From Solirubrobacterales bacterium (GTDB lineage: Bacteria; Actinomycetota; Thermoleophilia; Solirubrobacterales; JACPNS01), in contig JACPNS010000011.1 in NCBI GenBank assembly GCA_016185345.1, positions 124 to 64,123 of the forward strand: a stretch of DNA of 64,000 nt, written 5' to 3'. A model generated the notes under the pieces. It searched no databases and was not told the DNA's origin. It saw nothing but the letters and a program-made list of their open reading frames with translations. The position numbers and the translations under genes were made by a program. Below are positions 2,140 through 54,780 of this stretch, one piece after another (within the stretch, counting starts at the first letter, position 1; each line of letters begins with the position of its first letter).

Positions 2140-3516
2140 TCAGCGGACCAGAGCGACGGTCGCGGTGAATCCCATGCCTGCGAAAGCAGGGTCGTCCAGC
2201 GACGCTCCGGCACCCTTCATCAGGCCAATGATCTTCGCGACGTAGGCCTGAGTTTCTGAGTACGGCGGAATTCCGTCGTATTTCTGAATCGCTTCCGGGC
2301 CAGCGTTGTAGGCGGCCAGCCCCTCTGGAATCGATTCGAACTGCTTGATCAGCTGAGACATCAACTTTGCTTGCGCGAAAATCGATGCACGCGGATCGAA
2401 TGGGTCGGTCAGCCCCATCGAACGAGCGGTGCCCGGCACGAACTGCGCGATGCCTTGGGCGCCCGCAGGCGATACTGAGTTCGCATTGAAATCCGATTCC
2501 GCCTTCAGCTGAGCGGCGAGCAGCACAGGCTGGACATTGAATCGCTGGGCCGCGTCGAGGATCGTCTGGCGATACTGCGAGGGGACCCAACTCGGGAGGC
2601 CGTCCGCGCCCACGTGGCTACCGCCCTTCACCTCACGCGAGCCCGCGCCGTACTGAGCTGGCACGTCGCGCGGGTTGGCTCCGAAGCCAAAATGCCAAGG
2701 CTCCCATGCGTACCTTTTGATGAAGCCAAACCGCCTCGCGTTTGCCGCGAGCCAGCCGTATGCAGCCGGTGGCCCGAGATCGATTTCCGTTCCATACCGG
2801 TGAAGTGAAGTACCTGGCGGCGCGACCCACTTGGGATCTGGACGCGCGGAAAACAACCGCGCCTGCTCAGCATCCGAGCGAAAAGCACTGTTGATTGCCA
2901 GCGAGATGCCCGCGCCGCGAGCGGCCGCCGCAAGGCGGTCGAACGCCATCGCCACGTTGGGACGCAGCGCCTTGCCCTGGCGATATGCGAGCGGACCGCC
3001 GTAGCCGCCGCCGCTGCCATTGGCCGGCATCGCCCCGGGCATCGTCGCAAATGTGAAGCGAAGCTCGGCAGTCGCCTTCGCTCGGATATTCACGCGGCGC
3101 TGCTTTTCTGTGCCGGCAATTGGCACGTCGTGCCGCCGCGAGGTCGAGATCGTCACGGTCGTCGGTGAGAGACCGAGACCGAAGCTGACGCGCTCAACCC
3201 GTCCGATCGCCTCGTTCGCCACGGCGACGCGAACGGCCGCCTCGCGTGCGCGCAGCCGGTACGCCGCCGGAGACAGATAGCGAGGGTTCGGCGTGCCACC
3301 GGGTAAGACCGGTGGTTCCAACGTGCGGGAATAGTCCTTCGCCATTCTTCCCGCCGCCGCCGCCGCGGCGATGTCCGCCGTGCGCTGGTCCTGACCGCGC
3401 GCTGCTAGCGCTCCCCCGTACTGCGCGAACAGCGCCGCTCCGAGCAACGCGAGAATCGAGCCGGCGACCAACGGGATGGTCGCCTGTCCGTGCTGAGAGG
3501 CAACTCGGCGCGTCAC
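2140..3516 (-). CDS. TadG-like N-terminal anchor fused to an M15/VanY-type D,D-carboxypeptidase and an SLT lytic transglycosylase
   Basis: 458 aa. The N-terminus HGQATIPLVAGSILALLGAALF...RTADIAAAAAAG resembles the TadG/TadE-type anchor. The VanY motifs are SAFRSDAEQARLF, PPGTSLHRYGTEIDL and EPWHFGF. The SLT motif is AQLKAESDFNANSVSPAGAQGIAQF. A GTGA start/stop overlap joins it to the upstream ORF at 3513-3516. Confidence 0.75.
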   Translation of the reverse strand: MTRRVASQHGQATIPLVAGSILALLGAALFAQYGGALAARGQDQRTADIAAAAAAGRMAKDYSRTLEPPVLPGGTPNPRYLSPAAYRLRAREAAVRVAVANEAIGRVERVSFGLGLSPTTVTISTSRRHDVPIAGTEKQRRVNIRAKATAELRFTFATMPGAMPANGSGGGYGGPLAYRQGKALRPNVAMAFDRLAAAARGAGISLAINSAFRSDAEQARLFSARPDPKWVAPPGTSLHRYGTEIDLGPPAAYGWLAANARRFGFIKRYAWEPWHFGFGANPRDVPAQYGAGSREVKGGSHVGADGLPSWVPSQYRQTILDAAQRFNVQPVLLAAQLKAESDFNANSVSPAGAQGIAQFVPGTARSMGLTDPFDPRASIFAQAKLMSQLIKQFESIPEGLAAYNAGPEAIQKYDGIPPYSETQAYVAKIIGLMKGAGASLDDPAFAGMGFTATVALVR

Positions 3517-3986
3517 GAAGGCTGTGTGCGCGGGGAGAGGAGTTGATCGATGAGCTGATCGGCTCCTCGAGCGAGCTCACGCCTGCGCCGCCACGACGGC
3601 GCCGCGCCGGCCGCCGAAGCCATCAGCAGGATCGAGCATTTGGACTCGTCCACTTCGCCGACGCCGACGGTTTCTAACCGGGCGCCTTGGAAGCGCTCGC
3701 CGAGTTCCCGTGTGTAGAGGCCGCAGTAATTGAGGTCGCTCTGGTCGTCGACGAACAGCCACACCGACTCAAATTCCGCATCGATCGGAGCCAGACCCAC
3801 CCCGTCGAGCCGCACGTAGGACGCAGTTACCGGCGCCGCTCGCTCTACGAGCGCGGTCAGATCGGCGATCCGGCGTAGACGCCCACAAGCGTCCACCACA
3901 AGCAGCCGACTTGCTTGCGCGAGAACCGGTCGATCCAACGTACGCGGAACCCGCTCGACGAATAGTTCAGCGATGGCCTCGATCAT
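3513..3986 (-). CDS. Hypothetical protein (157 aa) in the tadE-like operon
   Basis: Internal ATG at 3986 of ORF 3513..4250 forms an ATGA overlap with the stop of the upstream gene (3983-3985). I see no transmembrane segment and no recognisable motif. The longer ORF-track version would overlap the upstream gene by about 270 nt. Confidence 0.55.
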   Translation of the reverse strand: MIEAIAELFVERVPRTLDRPVLAQASRLLVVDACGRLRRIADLTALVERAAPVTASYVRLDGVGLAPIDAEFESVWLFVDDQSDLNYCGLYTRELGERFQGARLETVGVGEVDESKCSILLMASAAGAAPSWRRRRELARGADQLIDQLLSPRTQPS

Positions 3987-4309
3987 TCTTTCGTGTACCT
4001 CGCCTCCGAAGTCACGACGAGCAATCCCGAGAGAGCCGGGAAGATCGAACGCGGCTTCAGCCGCACGCGAACGCGTTGCCCGCGAGTCGCGACCTCGATC
4101 CGCGTAGTCGACCAACCTGGCGCCGCTGACCGCGCGGCCTTCATTGGGTCGTTCCCGAGCTGACCGGCCAGCGCTCCGGCGTGCGAGGCATTGCCCGCGG
4201 CCACAAAGTTCGCGCCCGCCACGAGTCCCTGCAGGCCAAGGAGGCAGCAAAGAATCACGATCGGCGTCATCATCACGACTTCGACCTGCGATTGACCGCG
4301 CTGGCTCAT
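3983..4309 (-). CDS. TadE-like pseudopilin
   Basis: 108 aa. The N-terminus MSQRGQSQVEVVMMTPIVILCCLLGL is a short leader, G-Q, an acidic residue and then a hydrophobic helix (TadE/Flp-type class III signal). It has an ATGA overlap with the upstream ORF at 4306-4309. Confidence 0.7.
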   Translation of the reverse strand: MSQRGQSQVEVVMMTPIVILCCLLGLQGLVAGANFVAAGNASHAGALAGQLGNDPMKAARSAAPGWSTTRIEVATRGQRVRVRLKPRSIFPALSGLLVVTSEARYTKE

Positions 4310-4728
4310 GGATCCATCCGAGAGCTCGACGAAATACGCGGCCCGCCCGCCGCGCCGAGTGCGGCCCTGAACGGGGCCACCAACGGCACGCGCGCGCTCA
4401 CGGTCACAACGCCAGCCTTGGAAGCGACAATCCGCCTCGATGCCCTCGGCGAAGTCGCCAACAGCGAATCGGCCAGCTCATGCGCTCTCTTGTCCCCTGG
4501 CCTCGCTTCGCCCCGCTGATCGGCCACAAACCGCTCCCGAGCCGCCAGGCGTGCGACTTCGGCAACCTTCCACCACGTATGCCCAGCAACTACGAGCTGC
4601 CAGCCCGCGAGCATCACCAAGACGACGAGCGGCACCGTAAGCACCAGCTCAACACTGGCCTGCCCACGCGGATTCAGGATGGATCGCCACATGAGGAAGA
4701 TGCTGCCGAGCCGCGAGTAACGGTTCAA
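4306..4728 (-). CDS. TadE-like pseudopilin (start ambiguous: TTG 4728 or ATG 4692)
   Basis: ...MWRSILNPRGQASVELVLTVPLVVLVMLAGWQLV matches the TadE N-terminal pattern. ATG 4692 would give a 9-10 residue leader, as is typical for TadV substrates. Confidence 0.7.
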   Translation of the reverse strand: MNRYSRLGSIFLMWRSILNPRGQASVELVLTVPLVVLVMLAGWQLVVAGHTWWKVAEVARLAARERFVADQRGEARPGDKRAHELADSLLATSPRASRRIVASKAGVVTVSARVPLVAPFRAALGAAGGPRISSSSRMDP

Positions 4729-4732
4729 GACC
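4717..4732 (-). repeat. Copy 1 of the exact 16-nt box (sense GGTCTTGAACCGTTAC; plus strand GTAACGGTTCAAGACC)
   Basis: Identical 16-mers lie at 4717-4732, 31950-31965 and 54217-54232. Segments 4712-4740 and 54212-54240 match at 27 of 29 positions. Confidence 0.9.
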
Positions 4733-4783
4733 GAAACGCGAAGAGTTAAGAAAAAGTCAGTTACAAATCAGGAGCGGCGCAGC

Positions 4784-6247
4784 TTATGAGCGGCGCAGCG
4801 ACCCGAGCATTGGGTTCGCCGACTTGGCGCCGCGACGACGACCACCCTTGGCCGCGTACATCGCAACGTCCGCGCGGTGCACGAGCTCGTCGGGCGTGGC
4901 GTCGCTGTCGAGCTTGGCTGCCGCACCGATCGAGAGCGATACGGACATTCCCGAGGCCTCAACGCGAAGGCGCTGCACGAGGTGCTGAAGACCCTCTTCA
5001 TCTGTATCCGGACACACGACGACAAACTCGTCACCACCGAGGCGCGCGGTGAAGTCCGAACCACGCGCAGTCGCCGTGATCGCGGCCGCGACCTCACGAA
5101 GCAGACGGTCGCCGGCGACATGACCGTGCGTGTCGTTGAAAGATTTGAAGTGGTCGAGGTCCACGAAGACCATTCCCAGCGGCCGGCCGTGGCGCAGAGC
5201 GCGCTGCCACTCGATTGCCATCTGGCGGTCGAAGCCCTCGCGATTGGCCAATCCAGTCAGGTGGTCAAGCTGGGCGACACGAGCGACTGCCGTCGCGCGG
5301 CGGCGCTCGCGGAATGAGACTACGGCGAGGATCGAGGTCGCGAAGATCAAAAGCAGGAGCGCCGCGCGGAAGGCGAGCGGGATGCCGTCGACTGCGCGGG
5401 CGATCGTTGTCTGCTTGCGCGGGTTGTCGGAAGCGCTCTTGTCTTTTGAGCTGTTGGAACTCGAACCACCGCTTGAACCTGAGGACTTCTCGCTTCCGGC
5501 GGTCGCCGCCGCGACTGCCACGCCAACGCCAATGCCAGCTGCTGGCCTTGCGCTCGCCGCGATCGACGCCACGGCAGATCCTGCCGGTGAGCCGCTGTTT
5601 CCGCCAGAGCCGGAGTCCGAATCAGGGCCAACACCCTTCGTACCCGAAGATCCGTCGATCTTGCCGCGCGAACTCTGTTTCTTGCCGTTGTTGCTGGACT
5701 TTTTATCGGTGACCACGCCACCAGAGGGCGCGACTGGCTTGCTCTCTTCGGGAGTGGGCGTGCTGGGGCTCGGTGGCGGTGTGCCGTCAGAGCCAGATGG
5801 TGTTCCAGGGTCTTCGCTGTTTCCGGCGCCGCCGTCAGTGCCGGGATTTGAGGGGCTTCCGTTGCCGCCGCCAGGGCCAGGTTCATTTCCACCGCCCGAT
5901 CCACCCGGAGGCGGAGTCCCGTTGCCCGCATCTGTGCCGGGGCCTGTGCCTGAACCCGTGCCCGAGCCTGTGCCCGAATCTGTACCGGGGCTTGGCGGGG
6001 TCGTTGGCGCACCGCCGCCGTTCCCGCCATCGGAACCGGACCCGCCGCCATGCCCCTTGCTGTGACCGTTGCCGCGACTCTTACTGTGACCGACCCCCTT
6101 GCCGGTACCGCCATAACCGAACGCGTAGGCAGCGATCGCGAGCGGTCCGAGCACGAGCGCTGCACACATAAGCAGCACCGGCAAAAACTGCGAACTGCGG
6201 CGCAGGCTTGATCGTTTCGAGCGGAAGATGTTCCGGTACTCGGACAA
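4784..6247 (-). CDS. Membrane diguanylate cyclase (GGDEF) with a long low-complexity extracytoplasmic region
   Basis: C-terminal GGDEF domain (LTGLANREGFDRQ...VFVDLDHFKSFNDTHGHVAGD...RLGGDEFVVV). Two predicted transmembrane helices (about residues 21-43 and 289-312) flank a Gly/Ser/Pro/Thr/Asp-rich tract. Confidence 0.9.
   Translation of the reverse strand: MSEYRNIFRSKRSSLRRSSQFLPVLLMCAALVLGPLAIAAYAFGYGGTGKGVGHSKSRGNGHSKGHGGGSGSDGGNGGGAPTTPPSPGTDSGTGSGTGSGTGPGTDAGNGTPPPGGSGGGNEPGPGGGNGSPSNPGTDGGAGNSEDPGTPSGSDGTPPPSPSTPTPEESKPVAPSGGVVTDKKSSNNGKKQSSRGKIDGSSGTKGVGPDSDSGSGGNSGSPAGSAVASIAASARPAAGIGVGVAVAAATAGSEKSSGSSGGSSSNSSKDKSASDNPRKQTTIARAVDGIPLAFRAALLLLIFATSILAVVSFRERRRATAVARVAQLDHLTGLANREGFDRQMAIEWQRALRHGRPLGMVFVDLDHFKSFNDTHGHVAGDRLLREVAAAITATARGSDFTARLGGDEFVVVCPDTDEEGLQHLVQRLRVEASGMSVSLSIGAAAKLDSDATPDELVHRADVAMYAAKGGRRRGAKSANPMLGSLRRS
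5931..5990 (-). repeat. Five imperfect 12-nt tandem units inside the GGDEF gene, encoding PGTDSGTGSGTGSGTGPGTD
   Basis: Plus-strand units are tctgtgccgggg / cctgtgcctgaa / cccgtgcccgag / cctgtgcccgaa / tctgtaccgggg. Confidence 0.8.
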
Positions 6248-31672: not shown

Positions 31673-31894
31673 TCAGAGAATCTTGCCGAGCGCTCCCGTG
31701 ATGCCCTGGATCAGCTTGCTGCCGATCTTGGTGGCGAAGCCGAGTCCGTCGAGGCCGGTGAGGATCAACCCGATGCCCGTACCGAGCACGACGGTCAGGC
31801 CGACGTACTCGACTGTGGCCTGGCCACGCTGGTCCTTGGCGGCGTAGTACCGATTAGTGGCCCAGGCGGCCGCGCGTAGTGAAAGCTGCTGCAT
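31673..31894 (-). CDS. Flp/Fap-type prepilin-like protein
   Basis: 73 aa. ...KDQRGQATVEYVGLTVVLGTGIGLILTGL is the G/xxxxEY class III signal motif followed by a hydrophobic helix. An AGGAG Shine-Dalgarno sequence lies upstream of the ATG. Confidence 0.6.
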   Translation of the reverse strand: MQQLSLRAAAWATNRYYAAKDQRGQATVEYVGLTVVLGTGIGLILTGLDGLGFATKIGSKLIQGITGALGKIL

Positions 31895-31949
31895 TTTCTG
31901 TCTCCTAGTTGGAATTCGAGAGGTCGCTTCCGATCATCCAGATCTGCGC

Positions 31950-31965
31950 GTAACGGTTCAAGACC
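31950..31965 (-). repeat. Copy 2 of the exact 16-nt box, 55 nt upstream of the flp-like ATG
   Basis: Plus strand GTAACGGTTCAAGACC. With its flank GCGC, it gives 20 nt identical to copy 3 (31946-31965 vs 54213-54232). Confidence 0.9.
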
Positions 31966-32050
31966 TCTTCTGACCAACTCTGTGACGACTGGGTAAATCT
32001 TCTGCTCACGCAAGTCCGTTGCCGCCCGGCGATAGCGTTCGCGCAAGCAG

Positions 32051-47169: not shown

Positions 47170-47223
47170 GCTGGTGACTGACGTCTTGGGCTCGTTGCTG
47201 CGGGCTTTTGGCGGTGGAACTGG

Positions 47224-47238
47224 GGCCGCTTCGCGGCC
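47224..47238 (+). terminator. GC hairpin GGCCGC-TTC-GCGGCC downstream of the response regulator (no U-tract)
   Basis: Read from the sequence, about 55 nt after the stop at 47169. The lack of a T-run makes the intrinsic-terminator assignment weak. Confidence 0.3.
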
Positions 47239-47310
47239 GGCATTGAGGAAAAGTGTGCGGCGGCTTGGCGAACTCGTGCGTCCGCATACCCAAGGGGTAG
47301 ATCTTCCAAG

Positions 47311-47331: not shown

Positions 47332-47521
47332 TGTGGATTAATTCCCGGATACCTAAGCCAACAGCCATTTCAGCGTTTGGCCATCCGCCGTCCTTTTCAT
47401 CGCCGCCCGCCGCGAAGCGGCGCCTGTTCCACCAGCATGGGCACCGGACGCCGAGCCCGAGACGCCAGTCAACAGCCTGCCCAGCCGGTAAGTCATACCG
47501 TGGCGCTAGGATTTAGCCACG

Positions 47522-53568: not shown

Positions 53569-54255
53569 TTAGCCCCAGTTCATCGGATCGTCTAGTCGGA
53601 GGGTTGCGTCGAGGCGGCGGCGTTCCAGGAGCTTGGCCATGTAGCGCTGGTAGGCGTCGAGGCCACCGAAGACTTCCAGGGTCTTGGCTGCCTCCAGCCA
53701 ACTCGGCGGATCCTCATCGGCGATGAAGAGTCGATGCGTCGAGAACTTCCAATCCAGCCCGGCCCCCTTGTGGTTGTCATGCACGTATGCGACGCACCAC
53801 ATGAATGACTTGCGTCCTTCGATTCGGCGCGAGCGAAAGCGCCCCTCGAAGAGTGGGCCACTTGTCCCGTACCTGCGGTGGTAATAGAGCGTGTAGGCCC
53901 CCAGCACCCGGCGCATCAGACTGTCGATTCCGCCAGCAACTTTCTGCCACAGGACCAGGTGAAAATGATTCGAGAGCACGACCCGAGCGCACAATCTGAC
54001 TTCATTGCGCAGGCAGCGATAGGGACGACCTCGCTGATCAAAGTGCGGGACCGCAGAGAGATGGCGGTTCATCATCTGCTCAAAGACCCTGCGATCTTCG
54101 TCGTCGCGGAACAGCCAGATCCGGTCTCGGGAGTGACTCCAAACGTGATATCCGCCCGGCTCGCGCCGGTCCTGACTGAAGAGATACGGCATGCCCTCCA
54201 TCGAACCGATGCGCGCGTAACGGTTCAAGACCCAAACGCGCCGAGGACTCACCAA
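53569..54255 (-). CDS. IS200/Y1-type (REP-associated tyrosine transposase-like) protein; likely start ATG 54192 or 54201
   Basis: MPYLFSQDRREPGGYHVWSHSRDRIWLFRDDEDRRVFEQMM...LSNHFHLVLW...YHRRYGTSGPLFEGRFRSRRI...VAYVHDNH matches the Y1_Tnp (HuH ... Y) pattern. Confidence 0.75.
   Translation of the reverse strand: MVSPRRVWVLNRYARIGSMEGMPYLFSQDRREPGGYHVWSHSRDRIWLFRDDEDRRVFEQMMNRHLSAVPHFDQRGRPYRCLRNEVRLCARVVLSNHFHLVLWQKVAGGIDSLMRRVLGAYTLYYHRRYGTSGPLFEGRFRSRRIEGRKSFMWCVAYVHDNHKGAGLDWKFSTHRLFIADEDPPSWLEAAKTLEVFGGLDAYQRYMAKLLERRRLDATLRLDDPMNWG
54217..54232 (-). repeat. Copy 3 of the exact 16-nt box, 24 nt upstream of ATG 54192
   Basis: Plus strand GTAACGGTTCAAGACC. A second shared 10-mer, ACCAACTCTG, lies at 54251-54260 and at 31973-31982. 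Confidence 0.9.
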
Positions 54256-54314
54256 CTCTGCACCAATTCTCCGAAATCAAGCCGAAATCACTCCGCGCTC
54301 GATCCTCGCGGGAC

Positions 54315-54366: not shown

Positions 54367-54780
54367 ATGGCTGAAGAAGAGTTCACCCACGAACTGCGCG
54401 TGCGCTACTCCGAGTGCGACGCCCAGGGCATCGTCTTCAACGCGCGCTGGTTCGAGTACTTCGACGTTGCGATGACCGAGTTCTGGCGCGAAGTGATCGG
54501 CGGCTACTCGCACCTTCCCGATTCACTTGGGGTCGAGACCGTGGTTGCGGAAACGGGCGCCAGGTTCCGCGGAGCGGGTCGTTTTGACGACCTCCTGAGC
54601 TTCTCGATTCACGTCCGGCGGATCGGCACCACGTCGATGCGGATCGAAATCGACTGTCATCGCGAAGAGGCGCTGCTCTGCGAAGGCTTCATCGAATACG
54701 TATTCGTGGACCCGCGTGAACTGATCCCGGTTGAGATCCCGCAGCGGCTGCTTGCGCTGCTTCCGGAAGTCAGCCAATAA
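54367..54780 (+). CDS. Acyl-CoA thioesterase (4HBT/YbgC-like hot-dog fold)
   Basis: MAEEEFTHELRVRYSECDAQGIVFNARWFEYFDVAMTEFWR... Only the last 137 aa of ORF 53878..54780 are credible, because the rest is antisense to the transposase-like gene. Confidence 0.8.
   Translation: MAEEEFTHELRVRYSECDAQGIVFNARWFEYFDVAMTEFWREVIGGYSHLPDSLGVETVVAETGARFRGAGRFDDLLSFSIHVRRIGTTSMRIEIDCHREEALLCEGFIEYVFVDPRELIPVEIPQRLLALLPEVSQ

Follow-up and report, generated by a model that had tools for sequence, protein, structure and literature searches.

A conserved upstream box at pilin, recombination and RayT-like genes, a probable regulon-specific promoter element in uncultured Thermoleophilia

Box copies and adjoining genes in the JACPNS010000011.1 window

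The window examined is a 64,000 nucleotide (nt) stretch of contig JACPNS010000011.1 from a Solirubrobacterales bacterium (GenBank assembly GCA_016185345.1; contig positions 124 to 64,123), and coordinates given without a locus number refer to it. Exact searching found a 16-nt box, GGTCTTGAACCGTTAC in gene sense and GTAACGGTTCAAGACC on the plus strand, in exactly three copies (4717–4732, 31950–31965 and 54217–54232, all on the minus strand). Each copy is intergenic and, as an initial annotation of the window had claimed, points at a downstream minus-strand gene. These are the first gene of a tadE-like operon (copy 1), an flp-like pilin gene (copy 2) and a gene for a RayT-like protein (copy 3). 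The flanking identities that had been reported were also confirmed, namely 27 of 29 positions between copies 1 and 3 (4712–4740 and 54212–54240), 20 identical nt between copies 2 and 3 (31946–31965 and 54213–54232), and a second 10-mer common to copies 2 and 3 (ACCAACTCTG at 31973–31982 and 54251–54260). No box match beyond the three exact copies was found in the window when up to 3 mismatches were allowed, and 100 dinucleotide shuffles of the window gave a mean of 0.18 matches with none reaching three or more, in agreement with the earlier exclusion of a chance origin. In a window-wide repeat search, the top direct-repeat family was the 34-nt promoter region, which takes in the box and a hexamer 11 nt beyond it.

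The gene behind copy 1 (4306–4692, minus strand) encodes a TadE-like minor pilin of 128 amino acids (aa) that matches Pfam TadE (E = 4.8e-7), and nearly all of its homologues are 123–133 aa long with the same start. The rest of the operon (2140–4309, minus strand) consists of overlapping genes for a second TadE-like protein (3983–4309), a 157-aa open reading frame (ORF; 3513–3986) and a peptidoglycan hydrolase (2140–3516) that combines VanY and SLT behind a prepilin-like N-terminus, as assigned from Pfam and NCBIfam matches. Copy 2 precedes a gene for an flp-like prepilin of 73 aa (31673–31894, minus strand) that has no Pfam or NCBIfam match. It includes the processing motif G/QATVEY, which fits the G/XXXXEY processing site of Flp pilins (PMC4322843), and GQATVEY(V/L)G is invariant in five representative homologues. 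The gene behind copy 3 (53569–54192, minus strand) encodes a 207-aa RayT-like HUH/Y1 protein, here called Y1-A.

Related sites in other Thermoleophilia

Searches in related genomes showed that the box is conserved, with 21 distinct sites in 14 assemblies, all of uncultured soil actinobacteria of the class Thermoleophilia; the gene set is that of sampled loci (numbered with the prefix L), not of complete genomes. Seven gene families only were found behind these sites, namely the tadE-like operon, the flp-like pilin, comM-dprA, yraN, recA and two RayT-like families. The TadE, VanY/SLT, ComM/YifB, DprA, YraN, RecA and CinA proteins were identified by Pfam/NCBIfam.

The exact 16-mer was searched for in a 596-Gb genome collection, where about 277 chance matches are expected and at least 120 matches were obtained. 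Among the matches listed, 113 were single matches in unrelated phyla and seven came from metagenome-assembled genomes (MAGs) of Thermoleophilia with the whole architecture described below. The exact box was found in orthologous tadE promoters (L032 and L094), before an orthologue of the window RayT-like gene (L023; 16 of 16 bases kept), before a second, paralogous RayT-like family, Y1-B (L051, L106 and L090), and before a comM gene (YifB family) followed by dprA (L026; 2372–2387, plus strand). A variant box, GGTCTTGAAACGCAAC, lies 86 nt from the comM box on the opposite strand of L026 (2271–2286, minus strand), 23 nt before the ATG of yraN. Two box promoters are thus placed back to back in this locus, yraN being read one way and comM-dprA the other. 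Actinobacteria usually have the order yraN-comM-dprA, from which this MAG departs by having yraN inverted. A metagenome scan with GGTCTTGAACCGTTACNSG gave 21 matches, one of them real, located 23 nt before an in-frame ATG of recA and just after cinA (L155). The 17 single matches in viral contigs all had unrelated flanks and are attributed to chance.

Protein-guided retrieval, which yields sites independent of the exact 16-mer, added three orthologues of the RayT-like gene, three of tadE and three of recA. Before the RayT-like genes, GGTCTTGAATCGTTAC (L162; 15 of 16 bases) and GGTCTTGATCGGTTAC (L161; 14 of 16) are each 23 nt from the start codon, and GGTCTTGTAGTGCAAC (L159; 11 of 16) is 24 nt from a second ATG. 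The tadE sites are GGTCTTGAACCGTTGC (L164; 24 nt to the start codon), GGTCTTGAATCGTTAC (L165; 26 nt) and GGTCTTGAACCGTCAC (L166; 24 nt). The recA sites are GGTCTTGAAACGTCAC (L167, from the same assembly as L032; 23 nt), GGTCTTGATCCACAAC (L168; 23 nt) and GGTCTTGTTTTGTAAC (L171), in which the hexamer is at the usual offset and is followed by a leader with a Shine-Dalgarno sequence. The recA genes of Conexibacter woesei and of contig L169 are without the box, and the motif is therefore limited to one clade.

The C10T variant GGTCTTGAATCGTTAC is identical at the RayT-like site of L162 (8032–8047) and the tadE site of L165 (9959–9974), which are from sister ENA assemblies. This may reflect within-genome co-variation with a putative factor, were both contigs from one organism.

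Architecture of the box promoters

In gene sense, a T-rich tract is followed by the box GGTCTTGAACCGTTAC, 11 nt, a weak hexamer (mostly nnnGAT), 6–7 nt and an ATG or GTG, and the TTGAAC embedded in the box is 17 nt from the hexamer. At copy 1 the box covers roughly −40 to −25 of the promoter of the tadE operon, with the −35-like TTGAAC at 4723–4728 and the −10-like CAGCAT at 4700–4705; the terminal AT of this hexamer is conserved in related sites. At copy 2 the hexamer is GATGAT (31933–31938), with the same box-hexamer spacing as at other sites and a predicted transcription start near 31925, and at copy 3 it is TTCGAT (54200–54205), with TTCGAT or TTGGAT present in five of five Y1-A orthologues. 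All of these elements are on the minus strand, and each window hexamer is followed by 7 nt. In copies 1 and 3 the ATG (4690–4692 and 54190–54192) comes directly after the 7 nt, giving the box-to-ATG gap of 24 nt reported earlier for the ATGs at 4692 and 54192. The gap of 55 nt reported for the flp ATG at 31894 is likewise correct, and it includes a 31-nt leader with the Shine-Dalgarno sequence AGGAG (31902–31906, minus strand) 7 nt before the ATG. The tadE-like gene has no room for a Shine-Dalgarno sequence, and its ATG at 4690–4692 would be the transcription start of a leaderless mRNA.

Across the 21 sites, the distance from box to start codon is 24 nt in eleven, 23 nt in seven and 26 nt in one, and the remaining two are leadered. 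A start codon 6–8 nt past the hexamer with no Shine-Dalgarno sequence was found at 19 of the 21, the exceptions being flp in the window and recA of L171, both leadered with a Shine-Dalgarno sequence. The start codons are consistent with conserved N-termini and with the coverage of the family models. The initial annotation had proposed that TTGAAC could be a −35 element followed by a 17-nt spacer, a hexamer and about 7 nt, with leaderless mRNAs as the outcome. This proposal gains comparative backing from the same spacing at 19 of 21 sites, and the fit of the start codons to conserved protein N-termini also favours the predicted leaderless transcripts.

The layout is of the sigma-70 type, with TTGAAC, 17 nt and a hexamer at all canonical sites and TTG invariant in 21/21. 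When the hexamers are compared with TAnnnT, T6 is present in all sites and A5 in 18 of 21, A2 in about half and T1 in under half, and 13 of the 21 include GAT. None of the three window loci was recognised as a promoter by a scan with a strict sigma-70 consensus, because the hexamers of the box promoters are too weak for its rule. By comparison, at least 14 other long window ORFs with high G+C content at third codon positions (GC3) have TAnnnT ending 6–8 nt before an ATG or GTG, with no recognisable −35, indicating that ordinary leaderless promoters are common in this genome. Examples are found at 2102, 25082, 30096, 42602, 45163 and 63254 on the minus strand and at 54367 on the plus strand, and include promoters of uvrC, of a thioesterase gene divergent from copy 3 and of lytB. 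The box promoters reverse the ordinary pattern in having a poor hexamer and a rigidly conserved upstream region, which is the signature expected of promoters that would need more than the basal machinery.

Further motifs were detected 5′ of the box. At copy 1, GTAACTGACTTTTTC (4750–4764, minus strand) lies 17 nt upstream and looks like an UP element or an additional binding site. Promoters of tadE and Y1-B genes have the corresponding motif GTA[AG]CTGA[CT]T[TC]TT, again 17 nt before the box except in L090, where the distance is 6 nt. The 10-mer shared by copies 2 and 3, CAGAGTTGGT in gene sense, is upstream of the box in both (31973–31982 and 54251–54260, minus strand). A motif (C)AGAGTTGGT or (A/G)TTGGT is located at a variable distance (6–21 nt) 5′ of the box in flp, in the Y1-A orthologues of L023, L159 and L162 and in comM of L026. 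In the flp and comM promoters it makes a GGTC...GGTC repeat with a 10-nt period.

Specificity and conservation

A sequence-only promoter model of 68 positions, built from 17 sites, recovers every known site at 30–59 bits (46.7 bits for copy 2), with L171 at 27 bits, and a scan of 318 kb of Thermoleophilia DNA, which includes many housekeeping genes, together with the window gave nothing beyond the known sites. The chance 16-mer matches in other phyla reached only 15–22 bits against the full promoter model. In tadE orthologues, the proteins of which are 54–70% identical, the box is 94% identical, compared with 54% for the 25 nt upstream and 61% for the spacer, and five orthologous tadE promoters have the box with 0–1 mismatch. 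The flanking DNA of the sites is only about 45–60% identical. At the nine ascertainment-free sites, 11–15 of the 16 bases are kept, and positions 1–7 (GGTCTTG) and 16 are unchanged; GAAC is lost in 4 of the 10 sites found without the exact 16-mer.

LexA and PafBC sites at recA

Upstream of recA, the loci L155 (351–364), L167 (9832–9845), L168 (9852–9865) and L169 (9791–9804) each carry a canonical LexA/Cheo box, CGAAC-N4-GTTCG, with a conserved tattttccgtcc after it. In L155, L167 and L168 it lies about 60–95 nt upstream of the box, and L171 has the same layout. As the LexA box lies farther from the gene than the box promoter does, recA is served by two promoters under different control, and its keeping of a separate LexA box sets the box regulon apart from the SOS system. 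The box itself was rejected as a LexA operator, GAAC-C-GTTA having the wrong spacing relative to CGAAC-N4-GTTCG, and no Cheo box adjoins the box sites except the separate distal one at recA.

Membership of the PafBC regulon was also rejected. The RecA-NDp motif read by PafBC is tGTCgg-N10-tAnnnT at −23 to −28 (a −26 element), with a canonical −10 and no −35 (PMC8635444), and the box differs from it in sequence, in position (11 nt from the hexamer) and in partner elements (the −35-like TTGAAC). The working principle may nevertheless, by analogy, be like that of mycobacterial PafBC promoters, which belong to the same phylum (PMC8635444). In both, an asymmetric element with a conserved GTC triplet stands at a fixed distance upstream of the −10 and defines a regulon, recA has such a promoter besides a separate LexA-controlled one, and the factor works (or, here, would work) with RNA polymerase rather than as a classical distal activator. 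The differences are that the present element, GGTCTTGAACCGTTAC, occupies about −40 to −25 and is paired with a hexamer that is weak and non-canonical, and that the gene set has pilins and DprA/ComM, whereas that of PafBC is a broad repair set.

A candidate regulon with a competence-like gene set

We consider it probable that, in a clade of uncultured Thermoleophilia, the box serves as a promoter element specific to one regulon and is recognised by a dedicated factor. This reading is built on the promoter architecture, its conservation and specificity and the identities of the genes, all of which are apparent in the sequences compared. RNA polymerase would start at, or within 1–2 nt of, the start codon and produce leaderless mRNAs, and with so weak a −10 the promoters would rely on the box. 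The genes would be switched on together by a dedicated trans-acting factor that reads GGTCTTGA and GTTAC. The fixed orientation and distance point to a component of the initiation complex (an activator, an adaptor or a sigma factor) and not to a freely placed operator. The putative factor could work alongside the housekeeping sigma factor, as a class-II activator or in the manner of 'sigma adaptors' such as PafBC or the SARPs. Such a partnership is slightly preferred, because TTG and the 17-nt spacing are invariant and extra bases are fixed on both sides. An alternative sigma factor is nearly as likely, being less favoured because 16 conserved bases exceed what sigma domain 4 reads.

Promoters of extracytoplasmic function (ECF) sigma factors have 'AAC' in the −35 and 'GAT' or 'CGT' in the −10, for example those of SigD (Corynebacterium/Mycobacterium) and SigL. 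The canonical box is similar in having TGAACC, and most of the hexamers end in GAT. The differences are that AAC is not kept in the variants GGTCTTGTAGTGCAAC and GGTCTTGATCCACAAC, whereas GGTCTTG is, the spacing departs from the ECF consensus, and the number of conserved bases is again more than sigma domain 4 normally reads.

Among the genes that follow the box are flp, the tadE operon, comM-dprA and recA (next to cinA), a combination expected of a competence regulon; comM, dprA and yraN are not present in the window itself. A pilus, DprA, ComM and RecA together are a hallmark of natural-competence regulons in other phyla. From the shared promoter we infer that the box genes are co-regulated, and the set would co-ordinate a Tad-pilus DNA-uptake machine with proteins that protect and recombine incoming single-stranded DNA. 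It would be a competence-like regulon and may respond to stress or damage. The initial annotation had suggested one regulator coupling two pilin loci; the notion of a common regulator is retained in the present reading, but the two pilin loci are too narrow a compass, since the box also precedes comM-dprA, yraN, recA and the two RayT-like families. A more ambitious version, put forward tentatively and held to be somewhat doubtful, is that this would be the first recognisable competence regulon of Thermoleophilia, with a box-specific adaptor or sigma factor at −40 to −25 and with two domesticated RayT-like HUH families and YraN recruited as new players that process incoming DNA.

Known competence boxes include the cin-box of ComX/sigma-X in streptococci, the ComK boxes of Bacillus and the CRP-S/Sxy sites of Haemophilus and Vibrio. 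As in those systems, one short motif here ties an uptake pilus of the type IV-filament kind to dprA, comM and recA, with cinA adjoining. The present box has no sequence similarity to theirs, its pilus genes are of the Tad/Flp kind, most transcripts are predicted to be leaderless, and the set adds RayT-like HUH proteins and yraN in hosts that are uncultured and known from their genes alone. Among actinobacteria, Tad pili are required for transformation in Micrococcus luteus, where an Flp pilin and TadE/F-like minor pilins (G/XXXXEY and G/XXXXE[FS]) are needed for DNA uptake, and an actinobacterial competence regulator was not known as of that 2015 paper (PMC4322843). The M. luteus work supplied genetics without a promoter motif, whereas the present analysis supplies a promoter motif without genetics, and the window pilin genes are scattered instead of being in tad clusters.

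Several points weigh against this interpretation. As 11 of the 21 sites were found via an exact match to the 16-mer, the apparent conservation is inflated. At recA and yraN the box varies in its 3′ half, even in a genome with a canonical tadE box (L167 compared with L032), which means that not all of the 16-mer is strictly needed. The comM-dprA and yraN sites come from one locus each (L026) and those of recA from four loci, and regulon membership is incomplete, as the sampled DNA leaves out comEA, comEC and tadA/B/C. All box-bearing organisms are uncultured MAGs known from sequence only, and the factor is putative. The functional label is also uncertain, as recA, yraN and comM would also fit a DNA-damage regulon; against a DNA-damage trigger, uvrC, the next gene after the tadE operon, lacks the box and is preceded by an ordinary promoter of its own.

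If correct, the motif linking Tad pilins with DprA, ComM and RecA would be a sequence handle with which the regulon could be enumerated in any genome of the clade, its regulator fished for, and the uncultured lineages that take up DNA predicted, in a class that is known mostly from MAGs. It would nominate the single-copy RayT-like HUH proteins and YraN, two families that are currently without an assigned function, as candidate DNA-uptake or recombination proteins. It would further be a second actinobacterial case, after PafBC, of a fixed-position non-canonical upstream element replacing a strong −10/−35 pair.

Alternative explanations

The box could instead be a repressor operator overlapping the −35 of an otherwise constitutive housekeeping promoter, the genes being on when the repressor is lost, and its position relative to the −10 would then be fixed because the operator contains the −35 hexamer. 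The box does cover the −35 region, a common repressor target, TTGAAC with its 17-nt spacer could be a functional housekeeping −35, and the gene set has recA, a classic repressed gene. However, most operators are palindromic and position-tolerant, unlike the asymmetric box with its single orientation, recA has its LexA box separately upstream in the loci sampled, and the −10 hexamers are weak compared with the ordinary promoters of the same genome, arguing for activation. A repressor is accordingly regarded as unlikely. In another reading these are plain strong housekeeping promoters with no dedicated factor, in which a near-consensus −35 and optimal flanks make up for the poor −10 and the shared sequence has converged on the best site for RNA polymerase, a possibility suggested by the match of TTGAAC to 5 of the 6 bases of TTGACA, the invariant TTG (21/21), the optimal 17-nt spacer and a T-rich upstream tract that resembles an UP element. 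Convergence of this kind is very unlikely, given that GGTC upstream and G..AC downstream are conserved as strongly as the hexamer, that the motif is confined to seven functionally linked gene families, and that in about 340 kb of related DNA it is absent at highly expressed housekeeping genes, namely the dnaK operon, clpB, gap-pgk-tpi, guaAB, suf and pst.

Two readings place the function of the box outside transcription initiation. The initial annotation had raised the possibility of a footprint of the transposase-like element, and two RayT-like families do carry the box 5′ of their genes. RayT proteins act on repeated extragenic sequences beside their own genes (4er8; PMC5581495), so that the box could be such a recognition site, a REP-like sequence or a transposon end. 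This is contradicted by the RayT-like genes being single-copy and syntenic across genera, by a single box beside each gene with no inverted pair, by the lack of any REP-like hairpin or abundant repeat family in the window, and by RNA folds with z = −0.2, −0.6 and −2.8 for the three copies, with no common structure or conserved hairpin. The box also stands at a fixed distance from the starts of non-transposase genes (tadE, comM, yraN and recA) at orthologous positions in different genera, and a footprint is exceedingly unlikely. The box could also be an element of the RNA, transcribed from further upstream as part of a 5′ untranslated region and acting as a riboswitch, as the target of a small RNA or as a translational operator, the last of which would suit the fixed distance to the start codon. 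This is barely credible, as the hexamer is at a constant offset even at flp and at recA of L171, where the start codon is far away, the asymmetric conservation shows no covarying pairs, the copies have no secondary structure that is significant or common to them, and no Rfam family was found at threshold (Rfam 15 at the gathering score and tRNA scans of the window each gave 0 matches).

Other known motifs were compared by eye and rejected, namely LexA/Cheo, PafBC, the −24/−12 elements of sigma-54, FliA/WhiG, the direct repeats of GlnR and PhoP, and the BldD box. The HspR-associated inverted repeat (HAIR; CTTGAGT-N7-ACTCAAG) was rejected in the same way, as its left half alone resembles the box. 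A DNA-uptake sequence was rejected because the copies are few and confined to promoters.

RayT-like proteins

The AlphaFold2 model of Y1-A has a mean predicted local distance difference test score (pLDDT) of 92, and its best Foldseek match was 4er8, a repetitive extragenic palindromic (REP)-associated tyrosine transposase (RAYT; E = 3.6e-6), followed by about 28 chains of IS200-family TnpA (IS608, ISDra2 and IS200). With the conserved motifs HFH (H76-F77-H78), YVHxNH and Y136, the protein is predicted from this model to fold like a Y1 transposase and to have both the HUH motif and the catalytic Tyr. Pfam Y1_Tnp was below threshold, no other significant Pfam/NCBIfam match was obtained, an exact-protein look-up of the window protein returned no record, and no meaningful match came from searching PDB sequences with a profile of the family, the fold comparison alone being successful. 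The 51 homologues found are all from one lineage, and the gene has the same neighbours (thioesterase, FAD oxidoreductase and suf) in the window and in L162. Y1-A is single-copy and syntenic, and is probably domesticated. In L159 and L161, which represent two more distant lineages, the RayT-like gene comes directly after a dnaK-grpE-dnaJ-hspR-clpB heat-shock cluster (about 130–300 nt upstream), whereas its context in the window is thioesterase/suf.

Y1-A shares with RAYTs the fold, the HUH and Tyr motifs, and a single-copy, vertically inherited gene (4er8; PMC5581495), and differs from them in a sequence below the Pfam/NCBIfam thresholds and in having no flanking REP/REPIN repeats. A REP/REPIN-RAYT system was rejected, as there is one copy of the box per gene, always 5′, with no conserved hairpin and no abundant repeat family in the window. 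An IS200/IS605 insertion sequence was rejected on the single copy, the common neighbours in the window and L162 and the restriction of homologues to one lineage. The shared promoter suggests that the RayT-like genes are co-regulated with pilus and recombination genes, and we know of no earlier description of such co-regulation for RAYTs.

Other features of the box loci

The box promoter corrects the annotation of start codons. The NCBI annotation of the tadE-like protein (P0234) has 140 aa and begins at a TTG inside the box (window 4693–4728), and it is the ATG start of the 128-aa form that is conserved instead. The recA starts in related MAGs are called inconsistently (362–389 aa).

The tadE loci L164–L166 have the same four-gene order as the window, followed by uvrC. 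In the window, the TAnnnT promoter of uvrC means that co-transcription with the tadE operon is not needed; a terminator scan of the gene strand found none between the operon and uvrC and none after flp. The fusion of VanY (D-Ala-D-Ala carboxypeptidase) and SLT (lytic transglycosylase) in the last gene of the operon has an N-terminal HG/QATIPLV, a weak match to the Rv3654c TadE-like family, and is kept in L164–L166, which suggests a pilin-anchored cell-wall hydrolase. A gene for a GGDEF diguanylate cyclase with a long low-complexity Gly/Ser/Pro-rich N-terminus (4784–6247, minus strand) is directly upstream of the tadE promoter in most orthologous loci, and in L164 an SNase-like nuclease gene is inserted between the GGDEF gene and the tadE promoter.

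An 84-nt inverted repeat, 74% complementary (47170–47253 and 47393–47476), was also found between genes for a GerE-type response regulator and an Rrf2 protein. Two small ORFs, one converging on the other, lie in its arms, and their N-termini (MTDVLGSLLRAFGGGTGAASR and MTYRLGRLLTGVSGSASGAHAGGTGAASR) are similar.

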